Of a DNA stretch of 64,000 nucleotides, positions 7,339-47,059 are shown piece by piece. The DNA comes from an uncultured Bacteroidales bacterium (lineage in GTDB: Bacteria; Bacteroidota; Bacteroidia; Bacteroidales; GCA-2748055). Where the stretch lies: positions 1,658,910 through 1,722,909 of the forward strand of contig CAVVVN010000003.1 of assembly GCA_963751705.1 (NCBI GenBank), read 5' to 3'. The position numbers and the translations under genes were made by a program. How positions within the stretch are numbered: the first letter of the stretch is position 1; each line of letters opens with the position of its first letter. A model generated the notes under the pieces. The model did no database searches. It was given only the letters and a program-made list of their open reading frames with translations, and was not told where the DNA came from.

Positions 7339-8805
7339 TCATGTTTTTAGTGTTAAATATCTCCTGTATCGCTCTTCTGTTCCCTGGGCTGTGGCTGCAG
7401 GCGGGTATCTTTTAACCTTGCAGGACTTTCTCACCAGTTTCCTCCCCTCCTGAAGGTCTTCTAACTTGTCCATTGCAATTGCCTGAATCAATGCATTGCC
7501 CATAGCCGCTCCCTCCACCGGCCCTGAAATTACCTCCCGTTCACATATAGACGCAATTCGCTGACAAAGATAGTCCGACTGACTTCCCCCTCCCACCAGG
7601 TGCAGCACCTGGATGGGTTTCTGAGATAATATTTCCAGTTGCTCGATATGGTATCTGAATGAAAAGCAAAGACTGTCATAGGCACAGCGGATATAGTCGC
7701 TGAGCCGCTCTGGCCGAAGCTGTCCTGTTTTTTCAAAGTAGGTGTCAAAAGCCGCCTTCATGGAATCCGGGTTATAAAATCCCGGATCATCGGGGTCAAT
7801 TACCTGGCTTACAGGATCCTCTGACTGTACCATCTCTTCCATCTGAGCATAGGACACCTCGGCGCTAAAGTGCTTCCTTAGTCCCTGCAGCAACCAGAGG
7901 CCCACAATATTTTTTAAGGAACGGTAGCTGTTCCCGAAAGCTCTTTCGTTGGTAATTCCCAGCTGCAGAGCTTCCTGGCTTATCAGTGGGTGTAGCGACT
8001 CGATTCCCACGATGCACCAGGTACCGGCCGAAATAAATGCGTAGTTGGGATTCTCCACCGGTAAGGCAGCCACCACGCATGCCGTATCGTGGCCGCATAC
8101 TGCCACACACTGCATCTGGTTTTTCCTCAGCTCCTTCCTGATAACCGGCCCGAGTATGGTACCTGCTTGCACGACTTCACCCAGTTTATTCTCATCCAGG
8201 TTCAGCTTCTCTAAAATTTTTTCGTCCCAGGTGTCAGATTCCACGGCAAGCAGTTGCGAGGTGGAAGAGATTGTCAGCTCGTTAGCCGCTTTACCCGATA
8301 GCTGGTAGTTAAGGTAGGAGGGTATAAATAGGATTTTTGAGCTTCTTTGAATAGCCCGGGAATCTTTGATGGAAAGCAGCTGAAACAGGCTGTTAAAAAT
8401 GTAGAAGTTGATGCCGGTGCGAGTGAAGGTTTCAAACTCGGACATCAGCTTTTTCCATTTATCCTGCATCCCTTCAGTGCGACTGTCCCTGTAGGCTACC
8501 GGGGTGTCCACCAGATCACCGTGCCGGTCCAACAACACAAAATCGACTCCCCAGGCATCGACCCCCACGCTTTGAGGAGGCAGACCGGAGCTCTCTATGG
8601 CCATTAAAATTCCTGAAATAATCTCCTTGATTATCAGATCCATATCCCAGGTATCGCGTCCATCCTGAACCCTGATCTCATTCCTGAATCTGTGGATCTC
8701 CTCCAGCGATATGATACCCCCTCTAAAGCTGGCAAGCATCACCCGGACACTTCCTGCCCCCATATCCACTGCAATGCAGCTAAAATCTTCTCCTGTTCCC
8801 TTCAT
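7339..8805 (-). CDS. rhaB: FGGY-family sugar kinase of the rhamnulokinase (RhaB) type; may act on L-fuculose or L-rhamnulose
   Basis: 488 aa. RhaB-like segments: AVDMGAGSVRVML, EIHRF.N, VDAWGVDFVLLD, PVAYRDSRT, LKNIVGLWLLQ, HLVGGGSQ, GPVEGAAMGN. It lies 6 nt upstream of fucI on the same strand. Confidence 0.7.
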   Translation of the reverse strand: MKGTGEDFSCIAVDMGAGSVRVMLASFRGGIISLEEIHRFRNEIRVQDGRDTWDMDLIIKEIISGILMAIESSGLPPQSVGVDAWGVDFVLLDRHGDLVDTPVAYRDSRTEGMQDKWKKLMSEFETFTRTGINFYIFNSLFQLLSIKDSRAIQRSSKILFIPSYLNYQLSGKAANELTISSTSQLLAVESDTWDEKILEKLNLDENKLGEVVQAGTILGPVIRKELRKNQMQCVAVCGHDTACVVAALPVENPNYAFISAGTWCIVGIESLHPLISQEALQLGITNERAFGNSYRSLKNIVGLWLLQGLRKHFSAEVSYAQMEEMVQSEDPVSQVIDPDDPGFYNPDSMKAAFDTYFEKTGQLRPERLSDYIRCAYDSLCFSFRYHIEQLEILSQKPIQVLHLVGGGSQSDYLCQRIASICEREVISGPVEGAAMGNALIQAIAMDKLEDLQEGRKLVRKSCKVKRYPPAATAQGTEERYRRYLTLKT

Positions 8806-8859: not shown

Positions 8860-9819
8860 ATGGAAAAATATCCTAGATTTGTGTACAAATCAAACATTCA
8901 TCTGATGTTCCGTTTTCAGGAAATCCCCCCGGAAGGGGATCCGTCCAGCAGAATTCAGGAATTCCAGGAAGTGCTGCCCAGGCTTTTATGCTGCAGGTAT
9001 TGGTGGATGAAAGAATGGAAAAGTCAGCAAATGGCTTTCCCTTTCTGGAGGCTCTACTGGAATAAATCGGGCCGGGCCAAGGTTGTGTACAATAGAACGA
9101 CCTACCTGGAGCCGGATAAAATAGTGCTGATCCCTCCCAACACTCCTTTTTCCTCGGATATTGAAGGGACAAGGGTAAATCCGGACCAGCCCTACTCTCT
9201 CAGGGGTGGTCGTGTGGAGAGCCGGGAAATGGAAGAGGAGATGGCCGGCAAAGGAACGGTACTCCACCTGTTTATTCACTTTACATTGGGGTATCCCTAC
9301 GACACCATCACGCCGGAGATTTTTGTTTTCGATAAACTCGCCACTCAGGACTACCTGATCGAAGCCATTACCCACCAGCTTATGGAAGGCCAGGTAGTTT
9401 TCGACCAGGCGGACAGCCTGGACTTATACTCCCTCCTCTTTTCTCTGTTGTTCCAGCTGCCCTCCCACGTCTGGAACAAGCGGAAACTGGATGCCAGGGT
9501 GATCCGTGGTATCAGGTACATGGAGCAACATATCATGGAGATAGAGATATCGAACAGGACCCTGGCAAGCAAAGGCGGGATGTCGGTAAATGCCTATGCC
9601 CGGTTATTCAAAGACCAGACAGGATTTTCCCCACGCAAATATCTCTCCCGTATGCGTGTGGAGAAAGCATGTAACTTACTGCATCACAGCGACCTGTCCA
9701 TTGAGCAGATAGCGGCTGCCTGCGGATTTGCGGATCGTTACTACTTTACCAGGGTTTTCTCCCAGAACATGTATACCTCCCCGGGAGCCTACAGGAAGAA
9801 CAGTGTTTTAGGTAGCTGA
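8860..9819 (+). CDS. AraC-family transcriptional regulator (RhaR-like architecture)
   Basis: C-terminal double HTH (YARLFKDQTGFSPRKYLSRMRVEKACNLLHHSDLSIEQIAAACGFADRYYFTRVFSQ). Divergent from the kinase-fucI operon across a 54-nt spacer. Confidence 0.85.
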   Translation: MEKYPRFVYKSNIHLMFRFQEIPPEGDPSSRIQEFQEVLPRLLCCRYWWMKEWKSQQMAFPFWRLYWNKSGRAKVVYNRTTYLEPDKIVLIPPNTPFSSDIEGTRVNPDQPYSLRGGRVESREMEEEMAGKGTVLHLFIHFTLGYPYDTITPEIFVFDKLATQDYLIEAITHQLMEGQVVFDQADSLDLYSLLFSLLFQLPSHVWNKRKLDARVIRGIRYMEQHIMEIEISNRTLASKGGMSVNAYARLFKDQTGFSPRKYLSRMRVEKACNLLHHSDLSIEQIAAACGFADRYYFTRVFSQNMYTSPGAYRKNSVLGS

Positions 9820-9823: not shown

Positions 9824-11089
9824 CTAATGTTGACCAAGTAGGAGCTCTTCTGCCTCTACCGACCAGAGTCCACCGTTCCGGTCGCAGATATCGGCCAGAT
9901 CAGAAAACAAGGGATTCTGTTTGCCCAGCTCCCGGAAATCTGAAATGGCGGTAAGTGGCATTTCCAGATGGGTGTATATCAATTTCTTTCCCCCTGGAAT
10001 ATGCGGCAGGTTCAGAGTAGCTTCCGGTACCGCATCCAATCCCCCGATATGCGTAATCAGGCCCGAAGTGTCCATCCCCTTCTCCATCAGTTCCAGTGAT
10101 TCCCTGATATCATCCGTATTCCCCCCGCTGGTTCCCACAATATGGGTAAAGGCATAATGGACATTATAAAAATTGAGTTTGGCTGAGAATTCCGGATCGG
10201 CCGGACCTGCAAAGAAATTCAGGCAACCGTCAAAGGCCAGTAATTTATCGGCCTGTTCTATCACAGGTGCTACCGGAGCAAAAACAAACACGTCGTTATA
10301 TCCTTCGCCTCCGTTCAGGCCCTTCAGAAAGGTGCTTGGATCTTCGAGCCCTCCGGTATTCACATAGTGCAGTTCGATTCCATTCTTTTGAGCCAGTTGC
10401 GGAGGGTAAAGTCCTTCAGCCCGCTTAAGTCGAACCTCATCAATGTCCGTAACTACCAATAAGGAGGGCTTTCTGTCCTCACGGTTCAATACATAGCTGA
10501 TGGCTGCCAGGCCCATGGGCCCCACCCCGGCCAGGATGGCCATTTTACCGCCGTCCACAATCTCCATATCATGTACATAAGTACCAGGTTTGATGTGGTA
10601 GTTGGCATGCATGGCCCCGATCACGCAGGAGTAGGGTTCTGCCATGGAAGCCGGATAGTAGCCCGGTCCCCTGTAGACCAGCAGACAACCCATCTCCATC
10701 ACTTCTTTAGGAATGATCACATAGGTGGCATTGCCTCCCAGGAACTGATAGGAGTAACCGGGTGCCCCGAGGATCCCCACCGGTCCGTCCGGGTAATTGA
10801 GGGCAGGCTGGATGGCAAATTTATCCCCTGCCTTGAACTCACCGCTCCACTTTGCTCCCACTTCCACAATTTCACCGGCGAACTCATGCCCGATCATTAC
10901 CGGGTTCTTCGCTACATCATTGGGGATACGTTTATGAGCTGCACCCTGGATGGCCGCTTTATAGGAGGACATACAAAGGCTGTCGCTCACCACCCTGGCG
11001 AGGATCTCATCCTCCCTGATGGAAGGCAATTCAAACTCTTCGATCCGTAAATCTTCTTTTCCGTATAATCTGACTGCTTTTGTTTTCAT
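9824..11089 (-). CDS. zinc-type medium-chain dehydrogenase/reductase, unusually long (about 420 aa), possibly a ketose/polyol-phosphate dehydrogenase
   Basis: Catalytic-zinc context (SDSLCMSS; IGHEFAGEIVEVG) and Rossmann motif AILAGVGPMGL. There is no Cys-rich structural-zinc loop. About 55 aa extend beyond the usual MDR C-terminus. Start chosen at the internal ATG (MKTKAVRLYG), which leaves a 13-nt gap after the HAD stop; the ORF itself extends to 11140. Confidence 0.7.
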   Translation of the reverse strand: MKTKAVRLYGKEDLRIEEFELPSIREDEILARVVSDSLCMSSYKAAIQGAAHKRIPNDVAKNPVMIGHEFAGEIVEVGAKWSGEFKAGDKFAIQPALNYPDGPVGILGAPGYSYQFLGGNATYVIIPKEVMEMGCLLVYRGPGYYPASMAEPYSCVIGAMHANYHIKPGTYVHDMEIVDGGKMAILAGVGPMGLAAISYVLNREDRKPSLLVVTDIDEVRLKRAEGLYPPQLAQKNGIELHYVNTGGLEDPSTFLKGLNGGEGYNDVFVFAPVAPVIEQADKLLAFDGCLNFFAGPADPEFSAKLNFYNVHYAFTHIVGTSGGNTDDIRESLELMEKGMDTSGLITHIGGLDAVPEATLNLPHIPGGKKLIYTHLEMPLTAISDFRELGKQNPLFSDLADICDRNGGLWSVEAEELLLGQH

Positions 11090-11102
11090 ATAACCAGGTT
11101 TA

Positions 11103-11753
11103 TCAGGAGACGAAATCCAGAATCTGTGAGGGTGTTCCAATCAACTCTCCCATGCCCTCCATCGGCCGCTGGACCAGCCGTCCATATCCCCAGGTGACCC
11201 CCTGCGGGACCATCCCTGCAGCCTGAGCGGTGAGTATGTCATTGTCGGAATCTCCCACAAAAAGGATCTTTTGAGGCTCCATCCCCCAACCTTCAGCAAT
11301 TTCAAATGCTGCTGCCGGATCAGGTTTCCGGGGTACTTCATCGCGCTGACCAAATACAGGGTCTATGGGCCACCCGGAAAGATAGAATTCACAAACCTTT
11401 TTGGTTAACAGGTGAGGCTTATTTGAGAGGATGGCGATCTTTATCCCCCTGTTCACCAGGGCATCCAGTACTTCCGGCACTCCTGAATAAACACGGCTTT
11501 TATTATGCAGGTTCGTGGCATAGACCTCCTTAAACTCATTTACATAGGACCGTAATTGCTCCCTGCTGATCGGTTCACCGTAGGCACGTTCAATAAATTT
11601 CACTGCACCACTTCCAATCCAGTTCAGATAATATTCCAGATCATGCTCAGGAAGACCATGCCGCGCAAACATCATGTTGGCTGCTCCCGCAATATCCTCT
11701 ATGGTGTGGACCAGGGTGCCATCCAGATCAAAAATAACTCCTTCTATATTCAT
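11103..11753 (-). CDS. HAD-superfamily phosphatase (phosphoglycolate-phosphatase-like)
   Basis: HAD motif I FDLDGTLVHT, motif II ILSNK, motifs III/IV K...GDSDND. Start chosen at ATG 11753 (MNIEGVIF); the ORF track begins at TTG 11765. Confidence 0.8.
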   Translation of the reverse strand: MNIEGVIFDLDGTLVHTIEDIAGAANMMFARHGLPEHDLEYYLNWIGSGAVKFIERAYGEPISREQLRSYVNEFKEVYATNLHNKSRVYSGVPEVLDALVNRGIKIAILSNKPHLLTKKVCEFYLSGWPIDPVFGQRDEVPRKPDPAAAFEIAEGWGMEPQKILFVGDSDNDILTAQAAGMVPQGVTWGYGRLVQRPMEGMGELIGTPSQILDFVS

Positions 11754-11761
11754 TCCTTTGT

Positions 11762-12943
11762 TCAACTTAACATCACCTGTCCGCCGGTTACCGGGATGGC
11801 CTGTCCCGTTTCATACTCCTGTTCGATCACATACTTAATGGCCTTCACGACATCTTCCACCCTGCAGCCACGCCCGGCCGGCACCATGGATTCATAATGA
11901 CGCTTTACATCCTCTATTGTTTTTGCGCCACCTACCTTTCCAGCCTTCAGATACTGTACGAACAGTCCGTTCTTCGGATCGGACCACAGAGGGCCTTCGA
12001 AGAAATTTCCCGGACAGATCGCATTAACCTTGATCCGGTCCTCTATGAGCTCCATGGCGAAAGAGTGGGTCAAGCCGATCCCTGCAAATTTGCTGCCGGC
12101 ATAGGCAAAATTCTTCCTGCTTCCCTCAAGCCCCGATTTGGAGTTTATCTGAATAATATCTCCAAAGTTTTCCGAATAGTATTTGTTCTGTAGTTTCATT
12201 ACGGGTACCACTGCTTTTACACAGTTGTAATATCCTTTGTAGTTCACACGGGTCACCTGATCAAACTCTGTTTCTGTCAGCTCTTCGATGGATCCGGCCT
12301 TCAGAATACCTGCGTTGCTGATCATTACATCGAGTCCGCCGAATTCCAGAATGGTCTCATAGACCGCCTGCTGCATGGATTCCAGGCTGCTTACGTCTGC
12401 TTCCACAAACCAGGCCCTGTTAGGCGAGCGGTGCTGGTTGAGCTCTCCAGCCAGCCGCATTCCCTCCTTCCTGTTAATATCCATGATCACCACGTTGGCC
12501 CCCTCACCAAACAGCTGTGTGGCGATACCCTCTCCAAAGCCCATGGCTCCTCCCGTTATGGCCACAATCCTGTTATATAGGGGTTTACGATATTGTGGCG
12601 AGGCTACAGGCTCAGGAAGATCAGCCCCCCGGCTCTCCACGCGGACCGTGGCCAGTTTCTGCTCCACCTTGGATTTGTTGGAAGAGAGGCCCAGCAGTCC
12701 AAGCTCCTCGATAAAGATATATTCTCCAAGGTCCCCTTTAGCCGCTTCAATCTGCTTTAGCATATATTCTGCTTCTCCCTTGAAAACAGATATGCTACGT
12801 CCGAGGCGGACAGTGATTTTTTCGGGATCGCTTTCGTTCAGCTGGTCCATCGGAACAAAACTTCCACTCTTCAGGGAGTGTTCGGACATGATCATCCTGA
12901 TGGCAGGAACCAAAGCAAGAATGGCCTTTTTTTTCTGATCCAT
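11762..12943 (-). CDS. short-chain dehydrogenase of the sorbitol-6-phosphate dehydrogenase (SrlD) type with an N-terminal extension of about 120 aa
   Basis: Cofactor motif TGGAMGFGEG, NAG, and catalytic Y-x3-K (YAGSK). IIQINSKSG and the C-terminal VTGGQVM match E. coli SrlD as I recall it. The first 120 aa or so have no motif I recognise. Confidence 0.75.
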   Translation of the reverse strand: MDQKKKAILALVPAIRMIMSEHSLKSGSFVPMDQLNESDPEKITVRLGRSISVFKGEAEYMLKQIEAAKGDLGEYIFIEELGLLGLSSNKSKVEQKLATVRVESRGADLPEPVASPQYRKPLYNRIVAITGGAMGFGEGIATQLFGEGANVVIMDINRKEGMRLAGELNQHRSPNRAWFVEADVSSLESMQQAVYETILEFGGLDVMISNAGILKAGSIEELTETEFDQVTRVNYKGYYNCVKAVVPVMKLQNKYYSENFGDIIQINSKSGLEGSRKNFAYAGSKFAGIGLTHSFAMELIEDRIKVNAICPGNFFEGPLWSDPKNGLFVQYLKAGKVGGAKTIEDVKRHYESMVPAGRGCRVEDVVKAIKYVIEQEYETGQAIPVTGGQVMLS

Positions 12944-12953
12944 GATACGGGTA

Positions 12954-14168
12954 TTATCCGGTTATTTTAAAATAATGACGCAATACTGCCCGGCCCAGGA
13001 CCTCCATCTCTTCCCGCTCCATCTGTTCATACCCGGGGCCCTCTTTTGCTGTCAGGTACTGATGCGCAGCCAGATAAGCGGCACCCCTAAATGTGATCTC
13101 CAGCAATTTATCGTCCAGTGGAACCTGGTCCCTGCAACTTACAGTCAGGGGCAGCATGGCAGACGTATTGTGCTCGGTTCCAAAGGATATCACAAAGCCA
13201 TTTTCATAAAAGTATTCTGCGTACTCCTTTAAAACCTCGATCCTGTTTCTCAGGGGAATCAGCTCCACAGAATTAAACCCGCGCCCTTTCAGCTCTTTCA
13301 GCAATTGCTCTCTATCCTTCTCAAAGGGAGTGATCCCGCTCCCGGCACCATCCAGCAACATGGGGTAAGTGGGGATGCCTCCTGCATCACGGATGAGCTC
13401 CATGATCTTTTCCACCTTCATGAAAGCATTCTCATCCTCGGGAACAAATGCCGGGGCACCTGCCTTCAGCAGCCTGGCCCTTAATTCTTCCTCGATCCCG
13501 GCCATATCTTCCCGCCGCCTTTCCGAGGATCTTCCCCCATAAACCCTTTCCAGAAGGGTATAGAAGGATTCATCGTCCCCTACAGCTTCTTCCAGCTTTA
13601 ATCGCAGGGCCTTGGCAACATGCCTCTCTCTCAGCAAATGTTTGGCATGCTCTTTCTTGATCTCCTCCACCGAAATGCGAATCCCGGAGGCTTGAAACTC
13701 AAGCCACCGGTTCAGTAGTTCGATCATCTGTTCAACCTGCCTGTTGCTTTCTCGCACCACCCCGTCCAGTATCCTCTGCTGTCCTGTACGGAGAATGGAG
13801 GGAAATGCAAGTCCCTTGCCGCTGATATAGGTCCGCCCCGGATTATTGGGATCGTTCACCCTGATACCCGCCTCCTGATCCTTCCTGCTGATCCCTATAA
13901 GCTCCACATTCAACAGGGGAAATACCTGGTGCTTCAGGCACTGATCAATAAATTCCCCATAGCCCTCAGTTACATAAAAGTCATTAATTCCCAGAATCTT
14001 AACCCCTTCATTTCCAGCTCTTATTACAGCATCTTCGATACTTTCAAACGCACTGAATGAATAGGGAGAATGGATGTGATTATTCACCTTCAGAGGGTAG
14101 ACAGCCTGACCCGGTGGATACGATTCCAACAGGCTCAAGCGATCAGGAAACTGCTCTAAATACTTCAT
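12954..14168 (-). CDS. PHP-domain metal-dependent phosphoesterase
   Basis: N-terminal HxH motif (VNNHIHSPYSFSAF), followed by GINDFY and later His/Asp-containing strands typical of polymerase/histidinol-phosphatase-fold enzymes. 404 aa. Confidence 0.55.
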   Translation of the reverse strand: MKYLEQFPDRLSLLESYPPGQAVYPLKVNNHIHSPYSFSAFESIEDAVIRAGNEGVKILGINDFYVTEGYGEFIDQCLKHQVFPLLNVELIGISRKDQEAGIRVNDPNNPGRTYISGKGLAFPSILRTGQQRILDGVVRESNRQVEQMIELLNRWLEFQASGIRISVEEIKKEHAKHLLRERHVAKALRLKLEEAVGDDESFYTLLERVYGGRSSERRREDMAGIEEELRARLLKAGAPAFVPEDENAFMKVEKIMELIRDAGGIPTYPMLLDGAGSGITPFEKDREQLLKELKGRGFNSVELIPLRNRIEVLKEYAEYFYENGFVISFGTEHNTSAMLPLTVSCRDQVPLDDKLLEITFRGAAYLAAHQYLTAKEGPGYEQMEREEMEVLGRAVLRHYFKITG

Positions 14169-14181
14169 TCATCCGTGCGTT

Positions 14182-16650
14182 TTATACCCCCAGTCTGCTT
14201 CGGCGTTTCTGTTCGCCCGAGGTGAAATTCTGGGTGCATACGTGATTCTTTAAAGGTACTATCTTCTCATGAATGGCATCAACAATCCAAAAGGCTTGTG
14301 GAAAGAAATAGTCCTCCAGTTCATAGGCCGGGGTAATCCAGTTTCTGGAGCCCACCACCACGGGCGGAGCATCCAGATCATCAAAGCCGAGCTCAGTGAT
14401 GTTCTGAGCCACATCCTTCAGGTAGGATCCCCTTTCGCTGGCATCACTGACCAGCACAATACGTCCCGTCTTCTTCAAAGATTTCAGGACCAGGTCGTAG
14501 TTGAACGGAACCAGGGAGCGGGCATCTATAATCTCGGCAGACATCCCGTACTTCTCCTCCAGGATATCTGCAGCCTCCATGGCCCGGTAAAGGCTTGCTC
14601 CGACGGTCAGAATGGTAATATCCTCTCCCGGTCGTTTGATATCCGGTTCTCCGATGGGAATCTCATAGTATCCTTCAGGAACCCCTTCTTTATGGAACTC
14701 TTCCCCGATCCCATAGAGTCGCTGGCTCTCGAAAAAGATTACCGGATCGGTTCCCTGAAGGGCAGAATTCATTAATCCTTTTGCATCATAGGGGGTGGCA
14801 GGGAATACCACTTTAATGCCGGGGATATGGGCCACCAGGGACGACCAGTCCTGGGAGTGCTGGGCCCCGTATTTGGAACCTACCGACACCCTCAGCACCA
14901 CCGGCATTTTAATCAGGTTCCCACTCATGGCCTGCCATTTGGGAAGCTGGTTAAAGACCTCATCGCCCGACCGGCCCAGGAAATCGCAATACATAATTTC
15001 CGGTATAACCCGGCCACCGCACATGCCATACCCAATGGCAGTACCCACGATGGCTCCCTCGGATATGGGGGAATTAAACAGGCGGTTATAGGGCAGAGCC
15101 TCCGTGAGTCCCCGGTAGACGGCAAAAGCGCCTCCCCAGTCACGGTTTTCCTCCCCGTAGGCCACCAGGGTAGGATCCTTGTAAAATCGATCTGAAATGG
15201 CCTCAAAGAGTCCATCCCGGAACTGATATTGTTTCATGGCCGTATGGGCTTTGCCATCCTTATCAAAGGCATATCGTTCTTTTCGTGCGATCTGTTTAAC
15301 CCTGGGATTCTCATCCAGGGGATGGTTCACCTGGGGGACTCCTTCCTCCATACGGTCCATAGACTGGTTGGAGTACATCATCTCCCCGATTAATCCGGGA
15401 TGGCTGACCAGGTCCATTCTGGGGGATACCTGATCATCAATGGATAGTTTAAATGCTCCCAGGATCAATTCATCGCATTCCGCCTTGATCTGATCCAGAT
15501 CCGCCTGATCGGCCACTCCGGAATCCAAGAGCTCTTTGCCAAAGGCGACAATGGAATCGACCGACTCCCATGCTTCGATTTCTTCCCTGGAGCGGTAGGA
15601 GGAGGAATCGGAAGGAGAATGCCCGCTGAAGCGGTAGGTCAGAACATCCAGGAAGACGGGTCCTTTCTTGTCTTCCAGGAGCTTCATCTTTCTTTCATAG
15701 GCATCGATTACCGCCAGCGGATTGTACCCATCCACCCGTTCGGTGTGCATCTTTTCCCGATTCAAAGCAGCTCCCACCCGGGCTGCGATGGCATAACCCA
15801 TGGTCTCGCCACAGGTTTGTCCGCCCATCCCGTACTGGTTATTCATAATATTGAAAATGATGGGTAACCCGCCTTTCATGTCCCCTTCCCAGAGCTCCCG
15901 GAACTGGTCCATGGCTGCAAAGGTCATCCCTTCCCAAACCGGACCGCATCCCAGGGATGCATCGCCGATATTTGCCACCACGATACCTGATTTCCGGTTC
16001 ACTTTCTTATACAAGGCCGCTCCAACCGCAATATCGCCCGAACCACCAACAATGGCATTATTGGGATAAATCCCGAAGGGGGTGAAAAAGGCATGCATGG
16101 ATCCACCCAGGCCCTTGTTAAAGCCGGTCTCCCTGGCGAATATCTCCGCCAGGGTACCGTATACCAGGAATTTAAGTGCCAGTGATTTTACATCCCCTTT
16201 ATGCCCTTTTTCAACGATGCTCAGGATGCGGCCGTCAAAAAAATCCTTCATGATCCCGTGCAGGGTATTCTCATCCAGCTTCTGAATGGCAGAAAGCCCC
16301 TTGGCCAGGATCTCCCCGTGAGAACGGTGGGACCCGAAAATATAGTCATTGATATCCAGCCTGTAGGCCATGCCCACAGCTGCTGCTTCCTGCCCGATGG
16401 ATAGGTGGGCCGGACCCGGATGGGAATGACTTATCCCTTTATATTCATCCTTGGTTTTAATCAGGTTAAGCATGGTTTCAAACTCCCGGATAATCTGCAT
16501 ATCCCTGTAAATCCGGATCAGATCATCTTTCGAAAAGCGCGACAACTCTTCTTTTACAGATCTGTTGTATTTATTGACTGGAATGGAACCCAGTTCCAGA
16601 TCCTGAGACTGTCTGAGGTCTGCGGGGTTGATAAATTGTGTTTTTGGCAT
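14182..16650 (-). CDS. thiamine-diphosphate-dependent 2-oxoacid/acetoin dehydrogenase E1 component with fused alpha and beta subunits
   Basis: 822 aa. Alpha part: HLSIGQEAAAVG, RSHGE, and TPP motif IGDASLGCGPVWEG...IFNIMNNQYGMGG. Beta part: YGEENRDWGGAF.VYRGL......RLFNSPISEGAIVGTAIGYGM.GGR.IPEIMYCDFL. Confidence 0.85.
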   Translation of the reverse strand: MPKTQFINPADLRQSQDLELGSIPVNKYNRSVKEELSRFSKDDLIRIYRDMQIIREFETMLNLIKTKDEYKGISHSHPGPAHLSIGQEAAAVGMAYRLDINDYIFGSHRSHGEILAKGLSAIQKLDENTLHGIMKDFFDGRILSIVEKGHKGDVKSLALKFLVYGTLAEIFARETGFNKGLGGSMHAFFTPFGIYPNNAIVGGSGDIAVGAALYKKVNRKSGIVVANIGDASLGCGPVWEGMTFAAMDQFRELWEGDMKGGLPIIFNIMNNQYGMGGQTCGETMGYAIAARVGAALNREKMHTERVDGYNPLAVIDAYERKMKLLEDKKGPVFLDVLTYRFSGHSPSDSSSYRSREEIEAWESVDSIVAFGKELLDSGVADQADLDQIKAECDELILGAFKLSIDDQVSPRMDLVSHPGLIGEMMYSNQSMDRMEEGVPQVNHPLDENPRVKQIARKERYAFDKDGKAHTAMKQYQFRDGLFEAISDRFYKDPTLVAYGEENRDWGGAFAVYRGLTEALPYNRLFNSPISEGAIVGTAIGYGMCGGRVIPEIMYCDFLGRSGDEVFNQLPKWQAMSGNLIKMPVVLRVSVGSKYGAQHSQDWSSLVAHIPGIKVVFPATPYDAKGLMNSALQGTDPVIFFESQRLYGIGEEFHKEGVPEGYYEIPIGEPDIKRPGEDITILTVGASLYRAMEAADILEEKYGMSAEIIDARSLVPFNYDLVLKSLKKTGRIVLVSDASERGSYLKDVAQNITELGFDDLDAPPVVVGSRNWITPAYELEDYFFPQAFWIVDAIHEKIVPLKNHVCTQNFTSGEQKRRSRLGV

Positions 16651-16698
16651 GGGGAAAAGTTCTTAGTTTATTGTGTTGATATTGTGATCTTATTATAT

Positions 16699-18054
16699 CT
16701 ATTGGAGCATGGCGGGGGACAGTTGCTCTATCTGCTTTTTGATTTCAGCCAGGAACAGGGTGGCCGGCCCACCGTCCAGTGCCCGGTGATCATAGGTCAG
16801 GGAAAGCCCCATAAAAGGCTGAAATCCAAAGTTTCCATCGGCCAGAGTTGCGGGCCGTTGGATGATGGTATTCACGCCCAGGATCCCTACCTGTGGAAGG
16901 TTAATGACCGGAGTAAACATCTCCACACCGTAGGCGCCCAGGTTTGAAACCGTAAAAGTAGCCGCCTCAGGAACAATCAGGTCCGGAGAGATATTCCCTT
17001 TTTTGGAACTTTCTGCCATCTCCTTCAAACGGACCGATAGTTCCGGAAGGGAATAAGAATCTGCATTTAACAGGGCAGGAACCATCAATCCTCGCTCCGT
17101 ATCGACTGCCAGGCCCAGATGCACCTGATCGAAGATCCGAATGTGCTCTCCAAGGAAATGAGCGTTGGCCCCACGATGGAGCAGGAGGCTCTGTACCACA
17201 GCGTAGCAGACCATATCATTCAGGGTGATGTTGTAGGGATACCCGGCTTCCTGCCTGAGCTTAACTTCCCGCCTAAGCTGCAATATTCCAGCAGCATTGG
17301 CACTGAGATGGTGGGTAAGCTGGGCCGAGTTCTGCAGGGAACGGAACATGGCACCGGCAATGATCTTTCGGACATTGCTCAGTGGCACATCCGTATATAA
17401 TCCAGCTGTCTCCACTGAAGCAGCCATGCCTGATCCAGCAGGTGCTGAAATCAGATCTCCTGCTTTATATTTTCCGCAGTCGGGACGGTCACAGGGAACC
17501 GAAAGCCCCTCCGCCTCCTTTTTCTTCTGTGCCAGTGGGGTCAGACGTTTGCCCTGCCTGATGGCGTCCTTTATGTCCCTCTCAATGATGCGGCCGCCCG
17601 GACCCGTTCCAGACACCGCTTCCAGTACTACCCGTTTCTCCTTAGCCAGCTTCCTGGCCCTCGGAGAGATGGCCGAATCCTTGCTTCCCACCTGGGAAGT
17701 CAAACCTGGTTCAGAAACAGAACTTTCAATCGCTTTTTCTGTGCTTTCTGATTCGGCAGGGGACACTTGGCCTATACTGCTGCCTCCCCCTGGACGGAAC
17801 GACTCAATATCCTCTCCTTCCACCCCAATCAATGCCACATTAAACAAGACCGGAACCTCATCACCCTCTTCATAAAAACGGGCAAGCAAAATGCCATCCC
17901 CGGGAGCCTCCTCCTCAAAAGCAGCTTTATCTGTTTCATAGGCAAACAGCAGGTCCCCTTTAGAGATATTATCTCCTTCTGCTTTGTACCATTCGGTGAG
18001 GATGCAACTCTCCACCGATTGTCCCTGCCGGGGCATGATTACTGGATGGGCCAT
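16699..18054 (-). CDS. dihydrolipoamide acyltransferase (E2) with a single lipoyl domain
   Basis: Lipoyl-lysine motif AYETDKAAFE. Peripheral subunit-binding domain SPRARKLAKEKRVVLEAVSGTGPGGRIIERDI. Catalytic motif LTYDHRALDGGPA. Confidence 0.9.
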   Translation of the reverse strand: MAHPVIMPRQGQSVESCILTEWYKAEGDNISKGDLLFAYETDKAAFEEEAPGDGILLARFYEEGDEVPVLFNVALIGVEGEDIESFRPGGGSSIGQVSPAESESTEKAIESSVSEPGLTSQVGSKDSAISPRARKLAKEKRVVLEAVSGTGPGGRIIERDIKDAIRQGKRLTPLAQKKKEAEGLSVPCDRPDCGKYKAGDLISAPAGSGMAASVETAGLYTDVPLSNVRKIIAGAMFRSLQNSAQLTHHLSANAAGILQLRREVKLRQEAGYPYNITLNDMVCYAVVQSLLLHRGANAHFLGEHIRIFDQVHLGLAVDTERGLMVPALLNADSYSLPELSVRLKEMAESSKKGNISPDLIVPEAATFTVSNLGAYGVEMFTPVINLPQVGILGVNTIIQRPATLADGNFGFQPFMGLSLTYDHRALDGGPATLFLAEIKKQIEQLSPAMLQ

Positions 18055-18085: not shown

Positions 18086-18101
18086 ACTTGTATATACAAG
18101 T
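18086..18101. promoter_or_regulatory. perfect 16-bp palindrome ACTTGTATATACAAGT; candidate GntR/HutC operator of the E2-E1 operon
   Basis: Read directly from the sequence. It lies 32-47 nt upstream of the E2 start (18054) and immediately downstream of a minus-strand -7 box. GT...AC cores are characteristic of GntR-family operators. Confidence 0.6.
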
Positions 18102-18102: not shown

Positions 18103-18110
18103 CAAATATA
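18103..18110 (-). promoter_or_regulatory. Bacteroidota-type -7 promoter box (TATATTTG on the minus strand) for the E2-E1-PHP-SDR-HAD-MDR operon
   Basis: Plus-strand CAAATATA is the reverse complement of TATATTTG and matches TAnnTTTG. It lies about 50 nt upstream of the E2 start codon. Confidence 0.45.
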
Positions 18111-18245: not shown

Positions 18246-18268
18246 TATATTTGTAGATAGTTACAAAT
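18246..18268 (+). promoter_or_regulatory. -7 box TATATTTG overlapping the inverted repeat ATTTGTA-N6-TACAAAT; candidate autoregulated gntR promoter
   Basis: TATATTTG (18246-18253) matches TAnnTTTG 32 nt upstream of the GntR ATG. The inverted-repeat arms are at 18249-18255 and 18262-18268. Confidence 0.45.
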
Positions 18269-18284: not shown

Positions 18285-18998
18285 ATGGCTTTAAAAGAAG
18301 CTCCCTCCTACCGTAGGTTGTATGAGAAGCTGCGCAGGCTGATGGAGGACGGCACTTACAAGCGAGGAGATCTGCTTCCCTCTGAAAATGAGTTGTGTGC
18401 CGCCCACCACCTGACGCGCCCTACCGTTCGTAAGGCTCTGGATATGCTGGTCAATGAAGGATTCATACTCCGGCACCAGGGACTGGGCTCCATTGTCCAG
18501 GGCCAGCCTAAAGGGATCGGGATCCTCTCGCTTACCGGAACTACTTCGGCCATCGGTGAGGATATCCTGACAACCAGGATCATTGTCAAACCAAAAATTC
18601 TAAGTTGGGATCAGGCCTTCGGCTTTGAAATAAATGACCGGGAGAAAAGTATGGGTTGTATCTATATGGAGCGCTTAAGATTGATAAACGAGCGTCCCGT
18701 ATTCTATGATATTACCATGATCCCCAACCTGAACCTTCCCAGGTTCACCGCCCGTACCTTCGAGAACCGTTCTCTCTTTGAAATTCTCCGAAAACATTAC
18801 CAGGTGGAGGTTAAAGGCGGTGAGCAGAAGATCCAGGCGATCACCGCGGATGATCGGATTCAGAAACATTTCAGGGTAAGCAGTGATCATCCCATCCTTC
18901 GGATCAACAGGAAAATTGAAACCAACCGCATGGGCTTCGCTTTTTACAGCCAGATCTATTGCAACACCGAAGAATACAGCCTTACCGGCCGCTTCTGA
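18285..18998 (+). CDS. GntR-family transcriptional regulator, HutC subfamily (wHTH + UTRA effector domain)
   Basis: N-terminal wHTH LPSENELCAAHHLTRPTVRKALDMLVNEGFILRHQGLGSIV. Its 237-aa length and C-terminal fold fit UTRA-type regulators. Divergent from the E2 operon. Confidence 0.85.
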   Translation: MALKEAPSYRRLYEKLRRLMEDGTYKRGDLLPSENELCAAHHLTRPTVRKALDMLVNEGFILRHQGLGSIVQGQPKGIGILSLTGTTSAIGEDILTTRIIVKPKILSWDQAFGFEINDREKSMGCIYMERLRLINERPVFYDITMIPNLNLPRFTARTFENRSLFEILRKHYQVEVKGGEQKIQAITADDRIQKHFRVSSDHPILRINRKIETNRMGFAFYSQIYCNTEEYSLTGRF

Positions 18999-19014: not shown

Positions 19015-20346
19015 TTACAGGGTGGGCAGTTTCCAGGGAGCGCGGTAATGGGCACGGGTAAGCTCAGCTGCATTTGCATCGCCAACGACCTCCCCTTTTT
19101 CAGCATCCCAGAAAATCTTGTGACCGGTTCTGAGCGCGATATTACCCAGCTGGGCCACCCGGGCGATATGTCCGCCTATCTCTATGCTGGCATTGGGGGT
19201 CTCCCTGGTCTTCATGCACTCCAGGAAGTTCTTTACATGCAGGTCCAGGCCACTCTCCCCTCCCTTTTTGATGAGTGGAACAGACTCCATTCGTGCATTA
19301 CCCTGGGGAGACTCGGCGATGACTTCCCAACCTTCCCGGTCCACGACCAGCGTTCCATTGTGTCCAATGAAGGCCACCCCGTGGGCCCTGCCGTAGTTCC
19401 CCTGGCCGATACCCAGTGTGGATTCCCAGATTAATCCAATGTTGTCGAACTCATAGATGGCATACTGGGTGTCCGGAGTTTCCCGGGCGTCTTCAGGAAA
19501 GGCATATTTTCCGCCCGATGACATGACAGATTTTGGCACATACTGATTCATCCCGTACAGGGCATAATCCAACAGATGCACGCCCCAGTCTGTCATCAGT
19601 CCACCGGCATAATCCCAATACCAGCGGAAGTTAAAATGAAAGCGGTTGATATTGAAAGGATGTTTGGGTGCCGGTCCAAGCCAGCTTTCATAGTCCACTC
19701 CTTCGGGAACGGGACCATCGGGCTGCACCGGGAGCATATGCTTCCAGTCCAGGTAAACCCAGGACTTCACGGTACGTATCTTTCCCAGTTTCCCGCTGTG
19801 CACAAAATCAACTGCATTTTTCCAGTGGGGATCGCTGCGCTGCCATTGTCCCACCTGTACCACGCTCCCATACTTCTTCTGGGCAGCAATCATTAAATCA
19901 ATCTCCTCGATGGAATTGGCAATGGGTTTTTCCACATAAACATCCAGTCCGGCCTGGCAGGCCTCTATCATGGGAAGGGTATGCCAGTGGTCAGGAGTCC
20001 CGATAATAACAGCATCCAGGTCCTTATGCTCAAGCAATTTGCGATAGTCCCCATAAAGTGTTGCTTTCTTACCCTGGATCTTTTCCACCTCCGCCGCACG
20101 CTGCTCCAGGATGTTCCTGTCCACATCACAGAGGGCCAGACACTCCACTCCATCCATCTTCAGAAAAGATTTCAAATCGGACATGCCCATGCCATTCAGT
20201 CCAATGGCACCAATATTTATTTTTTCATTGGCCCCCAGGATCCTGGAGGCGGCACGGGCTGTACCTGGAAGAGAACTTATGATTCCGGTTCCTGCAGCTA
20301 AAGCTGCACTCCTATGAATAAAATCTCGTCGTTTCATGGATTTCAA
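19015..20346 (-). CDS. Gfo/Idh/MocA-family oxidoreductase with twin-arginine export leader
   Basis: Leader MKSMKRRDFIHRSAALAAGTG. Rossmann motif INIGAIGLNGMG. Family motif DVYVEKP. Confidence 0.85.
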   Translation of the reverse strand: MKSMKRRDFIHRSAALAAGTGIISSLPGTARAASRILGANEKINIGAIGLNGMGMSDLKSFLKMDGVECLALCDVDRNILEQRAAEVEKIQGKKATLYGDYRKLLEHKDLDAVIIGTPDHWHTLPMIEACQAGLDVYVEKPIANSIEEIDLMIAAQKKYGSVVQVGQWQRSDPHWKNAVDFVHSGKLGKIRTVKSWVYLDWKHMLPVQPDGPVPEGVDYESWLGPAPKHPFNINRFHFNFRWYWDYAGGLMTDWGVHLLDYALYGMNQYVPKSVMSSGGKYAFPEDARETPDTQYAIYEFDNIGLIWESTLGIGQGNYGRAHGVAFIGHNGTLVVDREGWEVIAESPQGNARMESVPLIKKGGESGLDLHVKNFLECMKTRETPNASIEIGGHIARVAQLGNIALRTGHKIFWDAEKGEVVGDANAAELTRAHYRAPWKLPTL

Positions 20347-20395
20347 TTGTATTTATACGGGTCTAAATTAGCAAATAATCCGCTCATCGAATCGG

Positions 20396-21913
20396 TCAGG
20401 CGATCTCTTCCATCTCTATACCCAGAACCTCAGCTGTGGTCCTCATCTGACTGAGATAATCACCATATACCATGGAAAAGTGGTGTCCGGTTTTTCTGGC
20501 AGCCTGGAAGTATTTCACGGCATCTGAGACCTGGATGATGGCCTTCAGCTGACAGCCCCACTGGTCCAATCCTCCAACATCCTTCATTTCTCCCCTAACC
20601 ACCAACATTTTATCCATCTTCGGTGTCATCCGGCAAAAGGTCACAGGTCTACCCCGGTCTCTGGAGAAATCGTAACGAAGGGTAGCTCCCCAGTTCCGTT
20701 CTGTAAAGCTCACCATCCGGAATGGAAGATCGGCCTGATCATAACCCATCATCTTGCGGCCAGGCACGTCATGGTGAATGGAAACCAGGTTCTGTTGCCT
20801 GTCATGGACCAGTGTATTTCCCATAAATGGGGTTCTTTCAGCCAGATAGATCTGCATTGCAATGGAGAAAGTCACATTTAGGTCCGCCTCACAACCCGAA
20901 GCATACCCTTCATCCTTAAGCAAGGAGTGGGTCAGGCAGGGAGTCACTTTGTATTTCATGGGAAGACGTGATACACAGAACTCCTGGCAGGTAGCGCTGA
21001 ATGCATTACATGCATGTTTCTGCATCAATTTTTTTACGGTCAGATAATAGAATACAGAATCCTTAATGGCCTCCTCCTTCATGGTATTGCTTTCAGCTTC
21101 CCGGATCAGTTCTGAGGTGATCTTATCCGCCTCTTTCCGGAAATCCTGTTCCTGCTTCACCGCTTCAAACTCCTTCATCATTGTTGCAATGGGCAGGTAA
21201 ATGGCATCAAAACCAAATTTCTTCCGCATGATCTCCTTGTCCAGGTTGCTGCGCACCGTATTATATTCATAATCCCATTCCCCGTCGGATACCACAAGCA
21301 TCTTAGTCGCAGCAAGTGCCTTCCGTATTTTTATGGCGCGGATATAGTCCATGGCCTGTTCCATATCCAGGGCTCCATATACTTCCTTTCCCTGGGATCC
21401 GAGCCCTGCGGCCACGTCCAGGGTGGAGCAGGCATTGCCTACCATGATTATGGGCTTCTGGGTCTTATAACCCAAACCCGGTATCCTGTAGTTATTGATC
21501 AGGTATACATCCGTATCCGAATCCTGGGCCAGTATCCTGTTCCAGCTTATTTCATCGATCAGGTGATCTCCGGTATACTCCACATACTCAGGTTCCAGTA
21601 ACTTGGTAAAGGGATCCAGCAGGGATTCGGTTGCCGTTCTCCATGCCTGGAAAGAATGAAGGGCTTTTTCCTTCTCAGCTTCTCTGTCCCATCCACTGGG
21701 ATCATTGGGCCGGCAGGGCCCCTCATGTAATTCCTTTGGAATCCGGGTTCCAAAAAGGGGTTTCACATGCGCCTGCAGGTCAAGGGGTCTGGGAATATTA
21801 AATAGTTCTTCCGAAATAAGGGGCCGGGAGTAGAGGCGGCGATTGATGGTGCCAGGAACCAATAGCAGGGAGCTGGCCATTCCGGTGCTTGCCAGAAAAT
21901 CTCTTCTTTTCAT
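20396..21913 (-). CDS. TAT-exported protein of unknown function with weak FucI/AraA-type sugar-isomerase resemblance
   Basis: Leader MKRRDFLASTGMASSLL. Segments GCEADLN and TGHHFSMVYGD resemble the metal-site segments ATENDSLN and [10 protein letters not shown] of the FucI in this same window. The family assignment is tentative. Confidence 0.4.
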   Translation of the reverse strand: MKRRDFLASTGMASSLLLVPGTINRRLYSRPLISEELFNIPRPLDLQAHVKPLFGTRIPKELHEGPCRPNDPSGWDREAEKEKALHSFQAWRTATESLLDPFTKLLEPEYVEYTGDHLIDEISWNRILAQDSDTDVYLINNYRIPGLGYKTQKPIIMVGNACSTLDVAAGLGSQGKEVYGALDMEQAMDYIRAIKIRKALAATKMLVVSDGEWDYEYNTVRSNLDKEIMRKKFGFDAIYLPIATMMKEFEAVKQEQDFRKEADKITSELIREAESNTMKEEAIKDSVFYYLTVKKLMQKHACNAFSATCQEFCVSRLPMKYKVTPCLTHSLLKDEGYASGCEADLNVTFSIAMQIYLAERTPFMGNTLVHDRQQNLVSIHHDVPGRKMMGYDQADLPFRMVSFTERNWGATLRYDFSRDRGRPVTFCRMTPKMDKMLVVRGEMKDVGGLDQWGCQLKAIIQVSDAVKYFQAARKTGHHFSMVYGDYLSQMRTTAEVLGIEMEEIA

Positions 21914-22017
21914 TTCAGGTCAGATATGTAAGTTCAAATGCTATATCAAGATAAGAAAATTCCGGAACACATTTTGTGGTAAACAGGGTATTCCAAACAC
22001 CGTAAAAACCAGAAACC

Positions 22018-22689: not shown

Positions 22690-22703
22690 ATAAGGGATCA
22701 ATA

Positions 22704-24005: not shown

Positions 24006-24034
24006 ATCTATAGTCTATGTTTAACAAGAAATCT

Positions 24035-47053: not shown

Positions 47054-47059
47054 GGGGAA

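Follow-up and report, generated by a model that had tools for sequence, protein, structure and literature searches.

What does a lipoamide-dependent dehydrogenase complex do in an operon that otherwise encodes two dehydrogenases and two putative phosphatases, next to genes for an L-fucose isomerase and a RhaB-type sugar kinase? The question is raised by six genes at positions 9824-18054 of a 64-kb stretch of contig CAVVVN010000003.1 from an uncultured Bacteroidales bacterium; this whole stretch is referred to here as the window, and all coordinates are those of the window. The six genes lie on the minus strand and encode, in order, a dihydrolipoyl acyltransferase (E2), a thiamine-diphosphate-dependent E1 component with fused alpha and beta parts, a PHP-fold protein, a short-chain dehydrogenase/reductase (SDR), a HAD-family phosphatase and a medium-chain dehydrogenase/reductase (MDR), separated from E2 to MDR by 48, 13, 10, about 0 to 8, and 13 nt. 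An earlier note on this DNA had suggested that the operon cleaves deoxy-ketose phosphates without an aldolase. The features on which that suggestion was built, namely six co-directional genes with their motifs, a divergent GntR gene, and neighboring genes for FucI and a RhaB-type kinase, are all present.

Homology was assessed with Pfam, NCBIfam, PDB, Foldseek and tblastn. Related loci, cited below by L numbers, were found chiefly by scanning species-representative genomes for the PHP gene, which gave 411 carriers, nearly all of them Bacteroidales; 80 loci were examined, and those with a PHP protein at least 57% identical to that of the window are called the close group. Based on these comparisons, we tentatively propose that the operon provides the second half of a pathway that degrades 6-deoxyhexoses (L-fucose, L-rhamnose or both), in which a carbonyl would be transposed along the sugar phosphate before cleavage by E1/E2. 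The idea of deoxy-ketose phosphate cleavage gains from SorE/SrlD homology, from the link to fucI and kinase genes and from E1 relatives associated with AcoC-type proteins, but the "aldolase-independent" label and the assignment of the PHP protein as a phosphatase both need qualification.

The MDR and SDR resemble a SorE/SrlD-type pair

The MDR (9824-11089, minus strand, 421 aa) is 51% identical to Klebsiella SorE from end to end (E = 3e-144; residues 3-420 on 4-403), 52.5% identical to E. coli YggP and 50-51% identical to annotated SorE genes. Its catalytic-zinc residues are present (C in DSLCMSS, HE in GHEFAG and E in AEPYSC), and the DSLC, GHEF and (A/V)EP(Y/L)SC motifs are conserved in the alignment with SorE. 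The lobe region contains no cysteine, and hence no Cys-rich structural-zinc loop. The membership in a SorE size class that the earlier note suggested thus reflects real homology, at 51-52% identity over the full length, and by this measure the MDR belongs to the SorE/YggP subfamily and is a putative ketose-1-phosphate reductase. SorE reduces L-sorbose-1-phosphate to D-sorbitol-6-phosphate (PMC12817954), and SORE constitutes a distinct subfamily within the polyol-dehydrogenase MDRs (PMC11519228). No phosphotransferase system (PTS) or SorC gene is found in the window, where the neighbors of the MDR are FucI, an FGGY kinase and E1/E2.

The SDR (11762-12943, minus strand, 393 aa) carries an SrlD-like domain at residues 121-393 with the motifs IIQINSKSG, YAGSK and TGGQVM. 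Its top NCBIfam model is sorbitol-6-phosphate dehydrogenase (PRK12384, 208.6 bits), followed by glucose 1-dehydrogenase (164 bits), and its best PDB match is SrlD (5o3z, 1.5e-37). The best enterobacterial and Aeromonas matches are annotated srlD in 11 of 11 cases, with 32-34% identity over 99% of the domain; identity to Klebsiella SorD is only 28%. The likeness to SrlD proposed earlier is therefore borne out in NCBIfam, in the PDB and in enterobacterial records alike, and a carbonyl-transposition pair of SorE and SrlD type is the best-supported reading of the MDR and SDR together.

Two start codons chosen in the earlier note have to be revised, although its set of genes stands. The MDR starts at ATG 11089, not at TTG 11140, as both the SorE alignment and the gene calls of relatives indicate. 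In every close relative the SDR has 393 aa, and because the first 120 residues form a conserved N-terminal extension, the long start is real and the short one previously assigned is wrong.

The E1 belongs to a sugar-associated lineage

The E2 (16699-18054, minus strand) has lipoyl (PF00364), E1/E3-binding (PF02817) and catalytic (PF00198) domains, with the motifs ETDKA and DHRALDG; the 822-aa E1 (14182-16650, minus strand) combines E1_dh (PF00676), Transket_pyr (PF02779) and Transketolase_C (PF02780) domains and contains the motif GDAS...NNQYG. Both proteins miss every NCBIfam equivalog cut-off, and among them all those for pyruvate dehydrogenase (PDH), the E1 alpha part with 197 against 394 bits, the beta part with 234 against 321 and 226 against 454 bits, and the E2, for which PDH E2 is nonetheless the best model, with 232 against 445 bits. 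These shortfalls indicate that the complex is not a housekeeping PDH or branched-chain 2-oxoacid dehydrogenase (BCKDH). In the PDB, the best relatives of the E2 are PDH acetyltransferases, ahead of the E2s of 2-oxoglutarate dehydrogenase and BCKDH, and BCKDH chains rank below PDH chains for both E1 alpha and E2. For E1 beta, BCKDH ranks below a Thermus 2-oxo acid dehydrogenase and bacterial PDH, and above human PDH. The name "2-oxoisovalerate dehydrogenase E1 component" borne by the E1 stems solely from automatic Joint Genome Institute annotation.

Conservation of the E1 is unusually high: among the Bacteroidales matches listed, which come from metagenome-assembled genomes and bear automatic names, it is 78-92% identical. 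Its nearest relatives outside Bacteroidota are the fused E1s of Rhizobium johnstonii pRL8, Agrobacterium pAt15955 and Pleomorphomonas pSM30-1, which are 53-55% identical over the full length and lie in sugar clusters (L084, L085, L086). There the genes after E1 encode a free lipoyl protein of 79-86 aa, an alpha/beta hydrolase similar to the hydrolase portion of AcoC (NF011457, 153-202 bits) and a sugar-binding regulator of the SorC type. Neighboring genes encode LipA, sugar ABC transporters, a kinase that is either a xylulokinase (XylB; 463 bits, above cut-off) or fructokinase-like (PfkB), and a protein that resembles either D-arabinitol dehydrogenase or a ketose 3-epimerase; the kinases have no detectable relation to that of the window. 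At 31-32% identity, a C. difficile cluster has the gene for a SorC-type regulator ahead of genes for split Aco-like E1 chains (alpha and beta), E2 and LpdA, and an Arthrobacter plasmid (L088) encodes a class II fructose bisphosphate (FBP) aldolase, a fused E1, a free lipoyl protein of 79-86 aa, an FGGY kinase and a sugar-binding regulator. We found no published characterization of the alphaproteobacterial or Arthrobacter clusters.

Judged by these gene neighborhoods, the E1 lineage is sugar-associated in three phyla and paired with acetoin-type E2s. The alphaproteobacterial partners of the E1 make omega-phosphorylated 2-ketoses, the class of compound that a SorE/SrlD pair would deliver, and the context of the E1 fits an omega-phospho-2-ketose substrate together with acetoin-type chemistry. 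No E3 homologue was found in the window; in distant relatives E3 is encoded within the cluster, which implies that the lipoamide cycle is oxidative.

The operon is conserved and linked to deoxy-sugar genes

The order gntR / E2-E1-PHP-SDR-HAD-MDR is invariant in the close group, and the operon is syntenic in about 40 species-level Bacteroidales genomes, so the six-gene arrangement is not a chance juxtaposition. The gene for the GntR/HutC regulator (18285-18998, plus strand; winged helix-turn-helix and UTRA domains; Pfam GntR 60.6 bits, UTRA 67.3 bits) is divergent in the same way in 25 or more orthologous loci, with 76-89% identity.

In the window, the putative feeder genes encode L-fucose isomerase FucI (5551-7332, minus strand; NF008220, 1085 bits, cut-off 775) and a RhaB-type FGGY kinase (7339-8805, minus strand), which scores 450 bits against rhamnulokinase (TIGR02627, cut-off 528) and 119 bits against E. 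coli-type FucK. A RhaB-type kinase occurs in 17 of the 22 close loci that have at least 8 kb of downstream sequence, and 13 of these 17 also encode FucI within the range examined. A GH29 fucosidase gene is close to the cluster in L012, L029, L036 and L038. Among distant relatives, RhaT-RhaA-RhaB adjoins E2-E3-E1-PHP in Proteiniphilum L072 and L074; in L072 the RhaA scores 634 bits (Pfam) and the kinase 526 bits to rhamnulokinase, and the cluster runs on as aldolase/SDR-MDR. In L077, FucI and a true FucK (607 bits, cut-off 471) adjoin gntR / E2-E3-E1-PHP. The predicted co-occurrence with fucI and kinase genes is thus seen in the close group and, as rhaT-rhaA-rhaB or fucI-fucK, in distant relatives. 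Because the feeder genes swap between relatives while the link itself stays, the substrate of the operon must be reachable from both L-fuculose-1-phosphate and L-rhamnulose-1-phosphate. We consider it probable that the operon belongs to deoxyhexose catabolism.

The gntR-E2 intergenic region contains a perfect 16-bp palindrome, ACTTGTATATACAAGT (18086-18101), located 31 nt upstream of the E2 start codon. It is nearly invariant in an alignment of 23 orthologous gntR-E2 intergenic regions, and it is the sole match in the 64 kb even when 3 mismatches are allowed, with 0.07 matches expected by chance. Directly upstream of it, TATATTTG (18103-18110, minus strand) matches TAnnTTTG, the Bacteroidetes -7 promoter consensus derived from Bacteroides promoters, and lies in the block TTATATTTG, which is conserved across the same 23 regions. 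The palindrome is the probable operator for the GntR protein. A scan of the operon for sigma-70 promoters and terminators gave no more sites than shuffled sequence. A further inverted repeat, ATTTGTA-N6-TACAAAT (18249-18268), precedes the gntR start by 17 nt; its conservation among relatives is only partial, and it may serve in autoregulation.

The kinase-fucI pair lacks the palindrome and has its own divergent regulator of the AraC family (8860-9819, plus strand; Pfam HTH_18 and HTH_AraC; best NCBIfam model RhaS, 72 bits). The AraC gene sits between that pair and the operon, divergent from the former and convergent with the latter.

A proposed route through carbonyl transposition and lipoamide-dependent cleavage

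In the proposed route, FucI and the RhaB-type kinase would supply a 6-deoxy-ketohexose-1-phosphate, and the SorE-type MDR would reduce its C2 carbonyl to give a 6-deoxyhexitol-1-phosphate. The SrlD-like SDR would re-oxidize this intermediate at the C5 hydroxyl, which, counting from the phosphate, is the position that SrlD attacks in sorbitol-6-phosphate. The expected product is a 1-deoxy-2-ketohexose-6-phosphate, whose CH3-CO-CHOH end makes it an analogue of acetoin. L-Fucitol is 1-deoxy-D-galactitol (PMC2962223). Without a C1 hydroxyl, the 1-deoxy-2-ketohexose-6-phosphate could not be phosphorylated into a substrate for tagatose- or fructose-bisphosphate-type aldolases. Instead, the fused E1 would cleave it with thiamine diphosphate, the E2 would carry the acetyl group via lipoamide to CoA, and an E3 encoded elsewhere would re-oxidize the lipoamide. 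The GntR/HutC repressor would control the operon by binding the promoter palindrome.

The second cleavage product would be a tetrose-4-phosphate. Since fuculose-1-phosphate and rhamnulose-1-phosphate differ only at C4, the future aldehyde carbon, both would converge on one tetrose phosphate. Its C2 would derive from C3 of the ketose, and derivation by Fischer projection predicts D-threose-4-phosphate or L-erythrose-4-phosphate, not D-erythrose-4-phosphate, so that a further isomerase would be needed; the PHP protein is the only unassigned candidate for this step. Up to cleavage, the net gain would be one NADH, and no lactaldehyde would be formed.

The SDR reads as the remnant of an aldolase-SDR fusion

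The earlier claim that the window encodes no class II aldolase is upheld: a search of all 64 kb found no such domain (best tblastn E value 1.4), and neither Fe-dependent alcohol dehydrogenase nor aldehyde dehydrogenase occurs among the Pfam-annotated large open reading frames (ORFs) of the window. In 27 of the 80 loci, however, all of them in the distant group, the PHP gene is directly followed by a gene for a class II aldolase and SDR fusion of 650-680 aa. These fusions have the architecture of RhaEW, but score 242-270 bits against a TIGR02632 cut-off of 568, and their aldolase halves match "bifunctional aldolase/SDR" models only. The SDR domain of the window protein shares 61% identity with the corresponding half of the L068 fusion, and its N-terminal 120 aa align to residues 217-353 of the fusion (hhalign probability 97%, E = 7e-11). 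PF00596 has no match in the 393-aa SDR, and the aldolase domain is present in its relatives in L068 and L051. To judge from these alignments, the window SDR is a truncated fusion that lacks only the aldolase core of about 215 aa. The description "aldolase-independent" accordingly holds within the 64 kb and for this lineage only, since the same SDR bears a class II aldolase domain in relatives.

All aldolase-less SDR loci for which upstream sequence is available have E1 immediately before PHP. Of the fused forms, 11 loci have E2-(E3)-E1 and others do not; an example free of E1/E2 is that of Mariniphaga, where PHP-aldolase/SDR-MDR and an inositol monophosphatase (IMPase)-family gene lie beside rpsB/tsf. 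In a rough neighbor-joining tree, the aldolase-less SDRs fall in three separate clades among the fused forms. From this distribution, we read E1/E2 and the aldolase-family domain as alternative C-C cleaving devices, the aldolase being dispensable only where E1/E2 is present. This pattern is an indication only, because the tree has no support values and the three clades do not amount to many independent events.

Possible roles of the PHP and HAD proteins

The PHP protein (12954-14168, minus strand, 404 aa, motif NNHIH) matches PF02811 with 30.6 bits (cut-off 26.4) over residues 31-120 only. It has more than 4780 homologues, of which the best 120 are 65-100% identical and bear generic names, and sequence searches found no relative in the PDB or in plasmids. 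An AlphaFold2 model (predicted local distance difference test score 78, predicted template modeling score 0.83) matched COG0613-type phosphoesterases with an inserted helical domain in Foldseek, namely BAD_1165, Cv1693 and RNase AM, at 13-16% identity (3o0f, 2yb1 and 9etk; E = 2-5e-8, target-normalized TM-score 0.62-0.70). In the alignment of homologues, HxH (H31, H33), D63 and E89 are invariant. Inspection by eye suggests that the His after strand 2 is replaced by N62-D63-F64 and the terminal D-x-H by T331-E332-H333-N334, which makes a trinuclear site and phosphatase activity doubtful. Of the earlier assignment as a PHP phosphatase, then, the fold stands and the activity is in doubt; the protein may be an epimerase or isomerase instead.

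Where an SDR or aldolase-SDR gene exists, the PHP gene always adjoins it. In L042 (8738-13231) and L054 (8736-13328), RhaA, PHP and aldolase/SDR form a tight module with no MDR, E1 or E2 nearby, which ties PHP functionally to the aldolase/SDR rather than to E1. Lone PHP homologues, 44-49% identical, occur in L062, L079, L059, L043 and L071 among unrelated housekeeping genes, with neighbors that include TatA, an ABC ATPase, PNPase, PorP and an HD-domain receptor, and the family may have a more general role.

The HAD-IA phosphatase (11103-11765, minus strand; motif DLDGT; Pfam HAD_2, 101 bits) matches phosphoglycolate phosphatase best in NCBIfam (147 bits, cut-off 225), with weaker matches to the hexitol phosphatase HxpB. 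In Mariniphaga (L068), the IMPase-family gene after the MDR takes the place of HAD. These features are compatible with a polyol-phosphate phosphatase, which may serve as a safety valve.

Weighing the proposed route against its rivals

Several observations weigh against the proposed route. The SDR remains below the SrlD equivalog cut-off (208.6 against 307 bits) and descends from a fusion of RhaEW architecture, and the E1 is not placeable by sequence as Aco or PDH: identity to split Aco-like E1s is about 31-33%, and scores against PDH E1s in the PDB are comparable. Five of the 22 close loci have no feeder gene within 10 kb. The RhaA-PHP-aldolase/SDR modules of L042 and L054 do not follow from the model, in which two of the six genes, PHP and HAD, have no necessary role, and the predicted tetrose phosphate is not a central metabolite. 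In or near the clusters of L072, L077 and the close loci L020 and L029 lies a tandem class II aldolase-family gene, which is absent from the window; as relatives' clusters carry such genes, an unlinked aldolase could operate here, with E1/E2 acting after aldol cleavage. Finally, we found no published description of the operon or of its intermediates in a literature coverage that was incomplete, so that a prior description is possible.

The strongest rival builds on such an aldolase, whether unlinked or, in relatives, fused or in tandem. It would yield dihydroxyacetone phosphate (DHAP) and L-lactaldehyde; a RhaW-like SDR would oxidize the latter to L-lactate, lactate would be converted to pyruvate, perhaps by the MDR, and E1/E2 would be a dedicated PDH. 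RhaEW fusions indeed yield DHAP and L-lactate, with an SDR half that oxidizes L-lactaldehyde, and occur in rha loci including those of Bacteroidetes (PMC3870299). The truncated-fusion origin of the SDR and the modules of L042 and L054 speak for this explanation, as does the fact that E1 and E2 match PDH components best in both NCBIfam and the PDB, and it would account for either feeder set, since fucose and rhamnose both give L-lactaldehyde. We nevertheless regard it as unlikely. The MDR is 51% identical to SorE, a subfamily in which no lactate dehydrogenase is known, and the SDR half scores 208.6 bits to SrlD against 120 bits to RhaEW models. The PDH equivalog cut-offs are all missed by a wide margin, and the 53-55% identical E1s pair with an AcoC-type E2 beside sugar kinases, outside pyruvate metabolism. 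Moreover, a PDH controlled by a GntR repressor of the sugar type would repeat what housekeeping pyruvate oxidation already does, no phosphatases would be required, and the constant attachment of aldolase-less SDRs to E1/E2 would be left unexplained. Less probable still is a direct oxidation of the C5 hydroxyl of the ketose-1-phosphate, after which E1/E2 would release acetyl-CoA and leave OHC-CHOH-CO-CH2OP; a second dehydrogenase would convert this to 3-oxo-tetronate-4-phosphate, and decarboxylation to DHAP would be carried out by an OtnC-like aldolase-family domain in relatives and, in the window, would occur spontaneously or through PHP. Such a scheme would account for a decarboxylase/aldolase domain fused to the SDR, and the tandem proteins of L072 and L077 match 3-oxo-tetronate-4-phosphate decarboxylase best (165 and 182 bits, against 150 and 164 for FucA); these matches, however, fall under the 250-bit cut-off and exceed those to FucA by merely 14-18 bits, and the aldolase half of the fusions, as noted, matches bifunctional models only. 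RhaW-type SDRs are able to oxidize aldehydes, and among polyol-dehydrogenase MDRs, threonine and butanediol dehydrogenases oxidize CH3-CHOH groups, but the specific relatives of the window MDR are ketose-1-phosphate reductases, not methyl-carbinol dehydrogenases. Three NADH per sugar would be awkward for fermenters, and the kinases beside the E1 relatives make omega-phospho-2-ketoses, not 1-phospho-2,5-diketones.

Two other explanations appear highly improbable. The first is the mundane alternative of the earlier note, an acetoin/2,3-butanediol operon of the usual kind or a BCKDH complex that merely lies beside sugar genes, widened to include a housekeeping PDH. The automatic name of the E1 would suit it, as would weaker matches of the SDR to acetoin reductase (143 bits) and of the MDR to (R,R)-butanediol dehydrogenase (1.6e-7). 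It finds no support, however, in the missed equivalog cut-offs and in the scores of BCKDH E1 and E2, which are under those of PDH. The butanediol dehydrogenase match covers the N-terminal domain of the MDR only, whereas the SorE likeness is full-length; gntR and the six-gene order are kept in about 40 species and linked to fucose/rhamnose genes; there is no AcoR-type regulator; and PHP and HAD have no place in acetoin catabolism. Similarly hard to credit is a transketolase-like attack of E1 at C2, which would place a glycolyl or phosphoglycolyl group on lipoamide and release a 4-deoxytetrose, with the HAD protein as phosphoglycolate phosphatase. The HAD models point that way, and the XylB and fructokinase-like kinases beside E1 relatives make ordinary 2-ketose phosphates; yet the HAD score of 147 bits is under the 225-bit cut-off and such matches are generic for HAD-IA enzymes, the SorE/SrlD pair would be left without a role, and fucose and rhamnose would continue to give distinct products, a poor fit to one operon that serves either feeder set. 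Whatever confidence is not taken up by the proposed route and these rivals we assign to explanations outside those considered here.

Genomic surroundings

The window also contains five GH106 and three GH78 rhamnosidase genes, one GH95-like gene, two sulfatase genes and genes for periplasmic Gfo/Idh/MocA oxidoreductases, and these surroundings look like a polysaccharide-utilization region. The glycoside hydrolase genes span 27700-30903, 33645-40104, 43434-50296 and 52886-62482. For all its eight rhamnosidase genes, the window has no rhaA, rhaT or GH29 fucosidase gene, and FucI and the RhaB-type kinase are its only sugar isomerase and kinase. Rhamnosidases without rhaA in the window imply either that rhaA lies elsewhere or that FucI and the kinase serve more than fucose. 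An AraA-like gene at 20396-21913 was considered as the missing cytoplasmic isomerase and rejected, as its product has a twin-arginine-type signal and only a weak SftI match.

This gene is part of a block at 19015-26030 that holds two Gfo/Idh/MocA oxidoreductase genes, each product with an apparent N-terminal twin-arginine signal, and genes for a 3-keto-disaccharide-hydrolase-like protein, a GH2-like protein, a 223-aa hypothetical protein and the AraA-like protein itself (505 aa, apparent twin-arginine signal, weak match to sulfoquinovose isomerase). The best model for the oxidoreductase at 19015-20346 is a glycoside 3-dehydrogenase family (166 bits, cut-off 750). The block, which may be a periplasmic oxidative glycoside-cleavage module, is syntenic beside gntR in whole or in part in L001, L004, L011, L016, L020, L023 and L081.

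Two gene models in the surroundings appear divided. Neighboring ORFs at 52886-53485 and 53867-55696 on the minus strand are jointly like one GH78 alpha-L-rhamnosidase, the upstream ORF supplying the N-terminal Ig, N and concanavalin-like domains and the downstream ORF the six-hairpin end and C domain; this may reflect a frameshift, a pseudogene or an assembly error. A beta-helix/GH120-insertion protein is apparently divided between 3854-4492 and 4595-5416, and this split is probably real, because the same two genes are called in an independent 5-kb assembly (L091).

Significance

None of the enzyme families involved is new by itself; what would be new is their combination and the substrate proposed for the lipoamide complex. 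It is possible, though rather doubtful, that the operon encodes the first 2-oxoacid-dehydrogenase-type (thiamine diphosphate/lipoamide) complex with a sugar phosphate as its physiological substrate, a "1-deoxyketose-phosphate dehydrogenase (acetyl-transferring)". Fucose and rhamnose are major sugars in algal, plant and mucin glycans, and unless a B12-dependent microcompartment is available, the known phosphorylated route forfeits half of their carbon, either as lactaldehyde, which is toxic, or as 1,2-propanediol, which is excreted. If the proposal is true, the route would be free of aldolase, lactaldehyde and B12 and would convert all six carbons of fucose or rhamnose to acetyl-CoA and tetrose phosphate. 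Carbon and ATP yields would change, and the redox balance would shift, with one NADH gained up to cleavage against one spent on reducing lactaldehyde in the classical anaerobic route. The fermentation products of sediment, digester and gut Bacteroidales would change with them, and metabolic models would be affected, as such genomes are now scored as having no complete pathway. The reach of 2-oxoacid and acetoin dehydrogenase complexes would extend to sugar phosphates. On the same supposition, the alphaproteobacterial E1 clade, with its AcoC-type E2 and ketose kinases, would mark widespread unrecognized sugar-cleaving lipoamide complexes, and the more distant fused E1 and free lipoyl protein of the Arthrobacter plasmid may belong to the same class. 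A function would also be suggested for the conserved PHP-fold family and for SorE/YggP-type reductases outside sorbose operons.

Comparison with known systems

The closest parallel for the dehydrogenase pair is the sor operon of Klebsiella and E. coli, in which SorE is likewise an MDR of about 420 aa without a structural-zinc loop and is joined by an SDR, the sorbitol-6-phosphate dehydrogenase SorD/SrlD. The logic would be the same, from ketose-1-phosphate via hexitol phosphate to ketose-6-phosphate, with the carbonyl moved to the other end of the chain. The window differs in having FucI and an FGGY kinase as feeders in place of a sorbose PTS and SorC, and in an SDR that combines its modest identity to SorD (28%) and SrlD (32-34%) with a 120-aa remnant domain. 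In addition, a 6-deoxy substrate would give a 1-deoxyketose-6-phosphate, which is barred from glycolysis.

For the cleavage step, the model is the AcoA/AcoB/AcoC/AcoL system, where a thiamine-diphosphate-dependent E1 and a lipoyl E2 act on a CH3-CO-CHOH ketol; by analogy, the window complex would split such a ketol into an acetyl group and an aldehyde. Outside the phylum, the nearest relatives of the E1 pair with an E2 of the AcoC (alpha/beta-hydrolase) type. In contrast to Aco, the window E1 is a single fused protein and only distantly related to the split Aco-like E1s, its E2 is of the canonical acyltransferase type, the proposed substrate is a sugar phosphate, the regulator is of the GntR/HutC and not the AcoR type, and no E3 is encoded alongside.

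The bifunctional L-rhamnulose-1-phosphate aldolase/L-lactaldehyde dehydrogenase RhaEW (Rodionova et al. 2013, PMC3870299) is resembled by the class II aldolase and SDR fusions that relatives encode at the same position of the operon. The window protein has kept the SDR portion and some of the middle region of such a fusion and lacks the aldolase core; the fusions of relatives score less than half of the RhaEW cut-off, and the SDR half is closer to SrlD than to RhaEW models. The PHP protein shares with the COG0613 phosphoesterases (the pAp phosphatase Cv1693, BAD_1165 and RNase AM/TrpH) the fold with an inserted helical domain and the N-terminal HxH, and departs from them in its low identity and in metal motifs that appear, by eye, partly replaced.

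With the classical FucI-FucK-FucA-FucO and RhaA-RhaB-RhaD pathways, finally, the locus shares an isomerase and a kinase that act in turn to give a ketose-1-phosphate, encoded by genes that adjoin the operon. It differs in having no FucA/RhaD aldolase, lactaldehyde reductase or lactaldehyde dehydrogenase in the window, and from the ketose-1-phosphate onward the proposed route would bypass both L-lactaldehyde and 1,2-propanediol.

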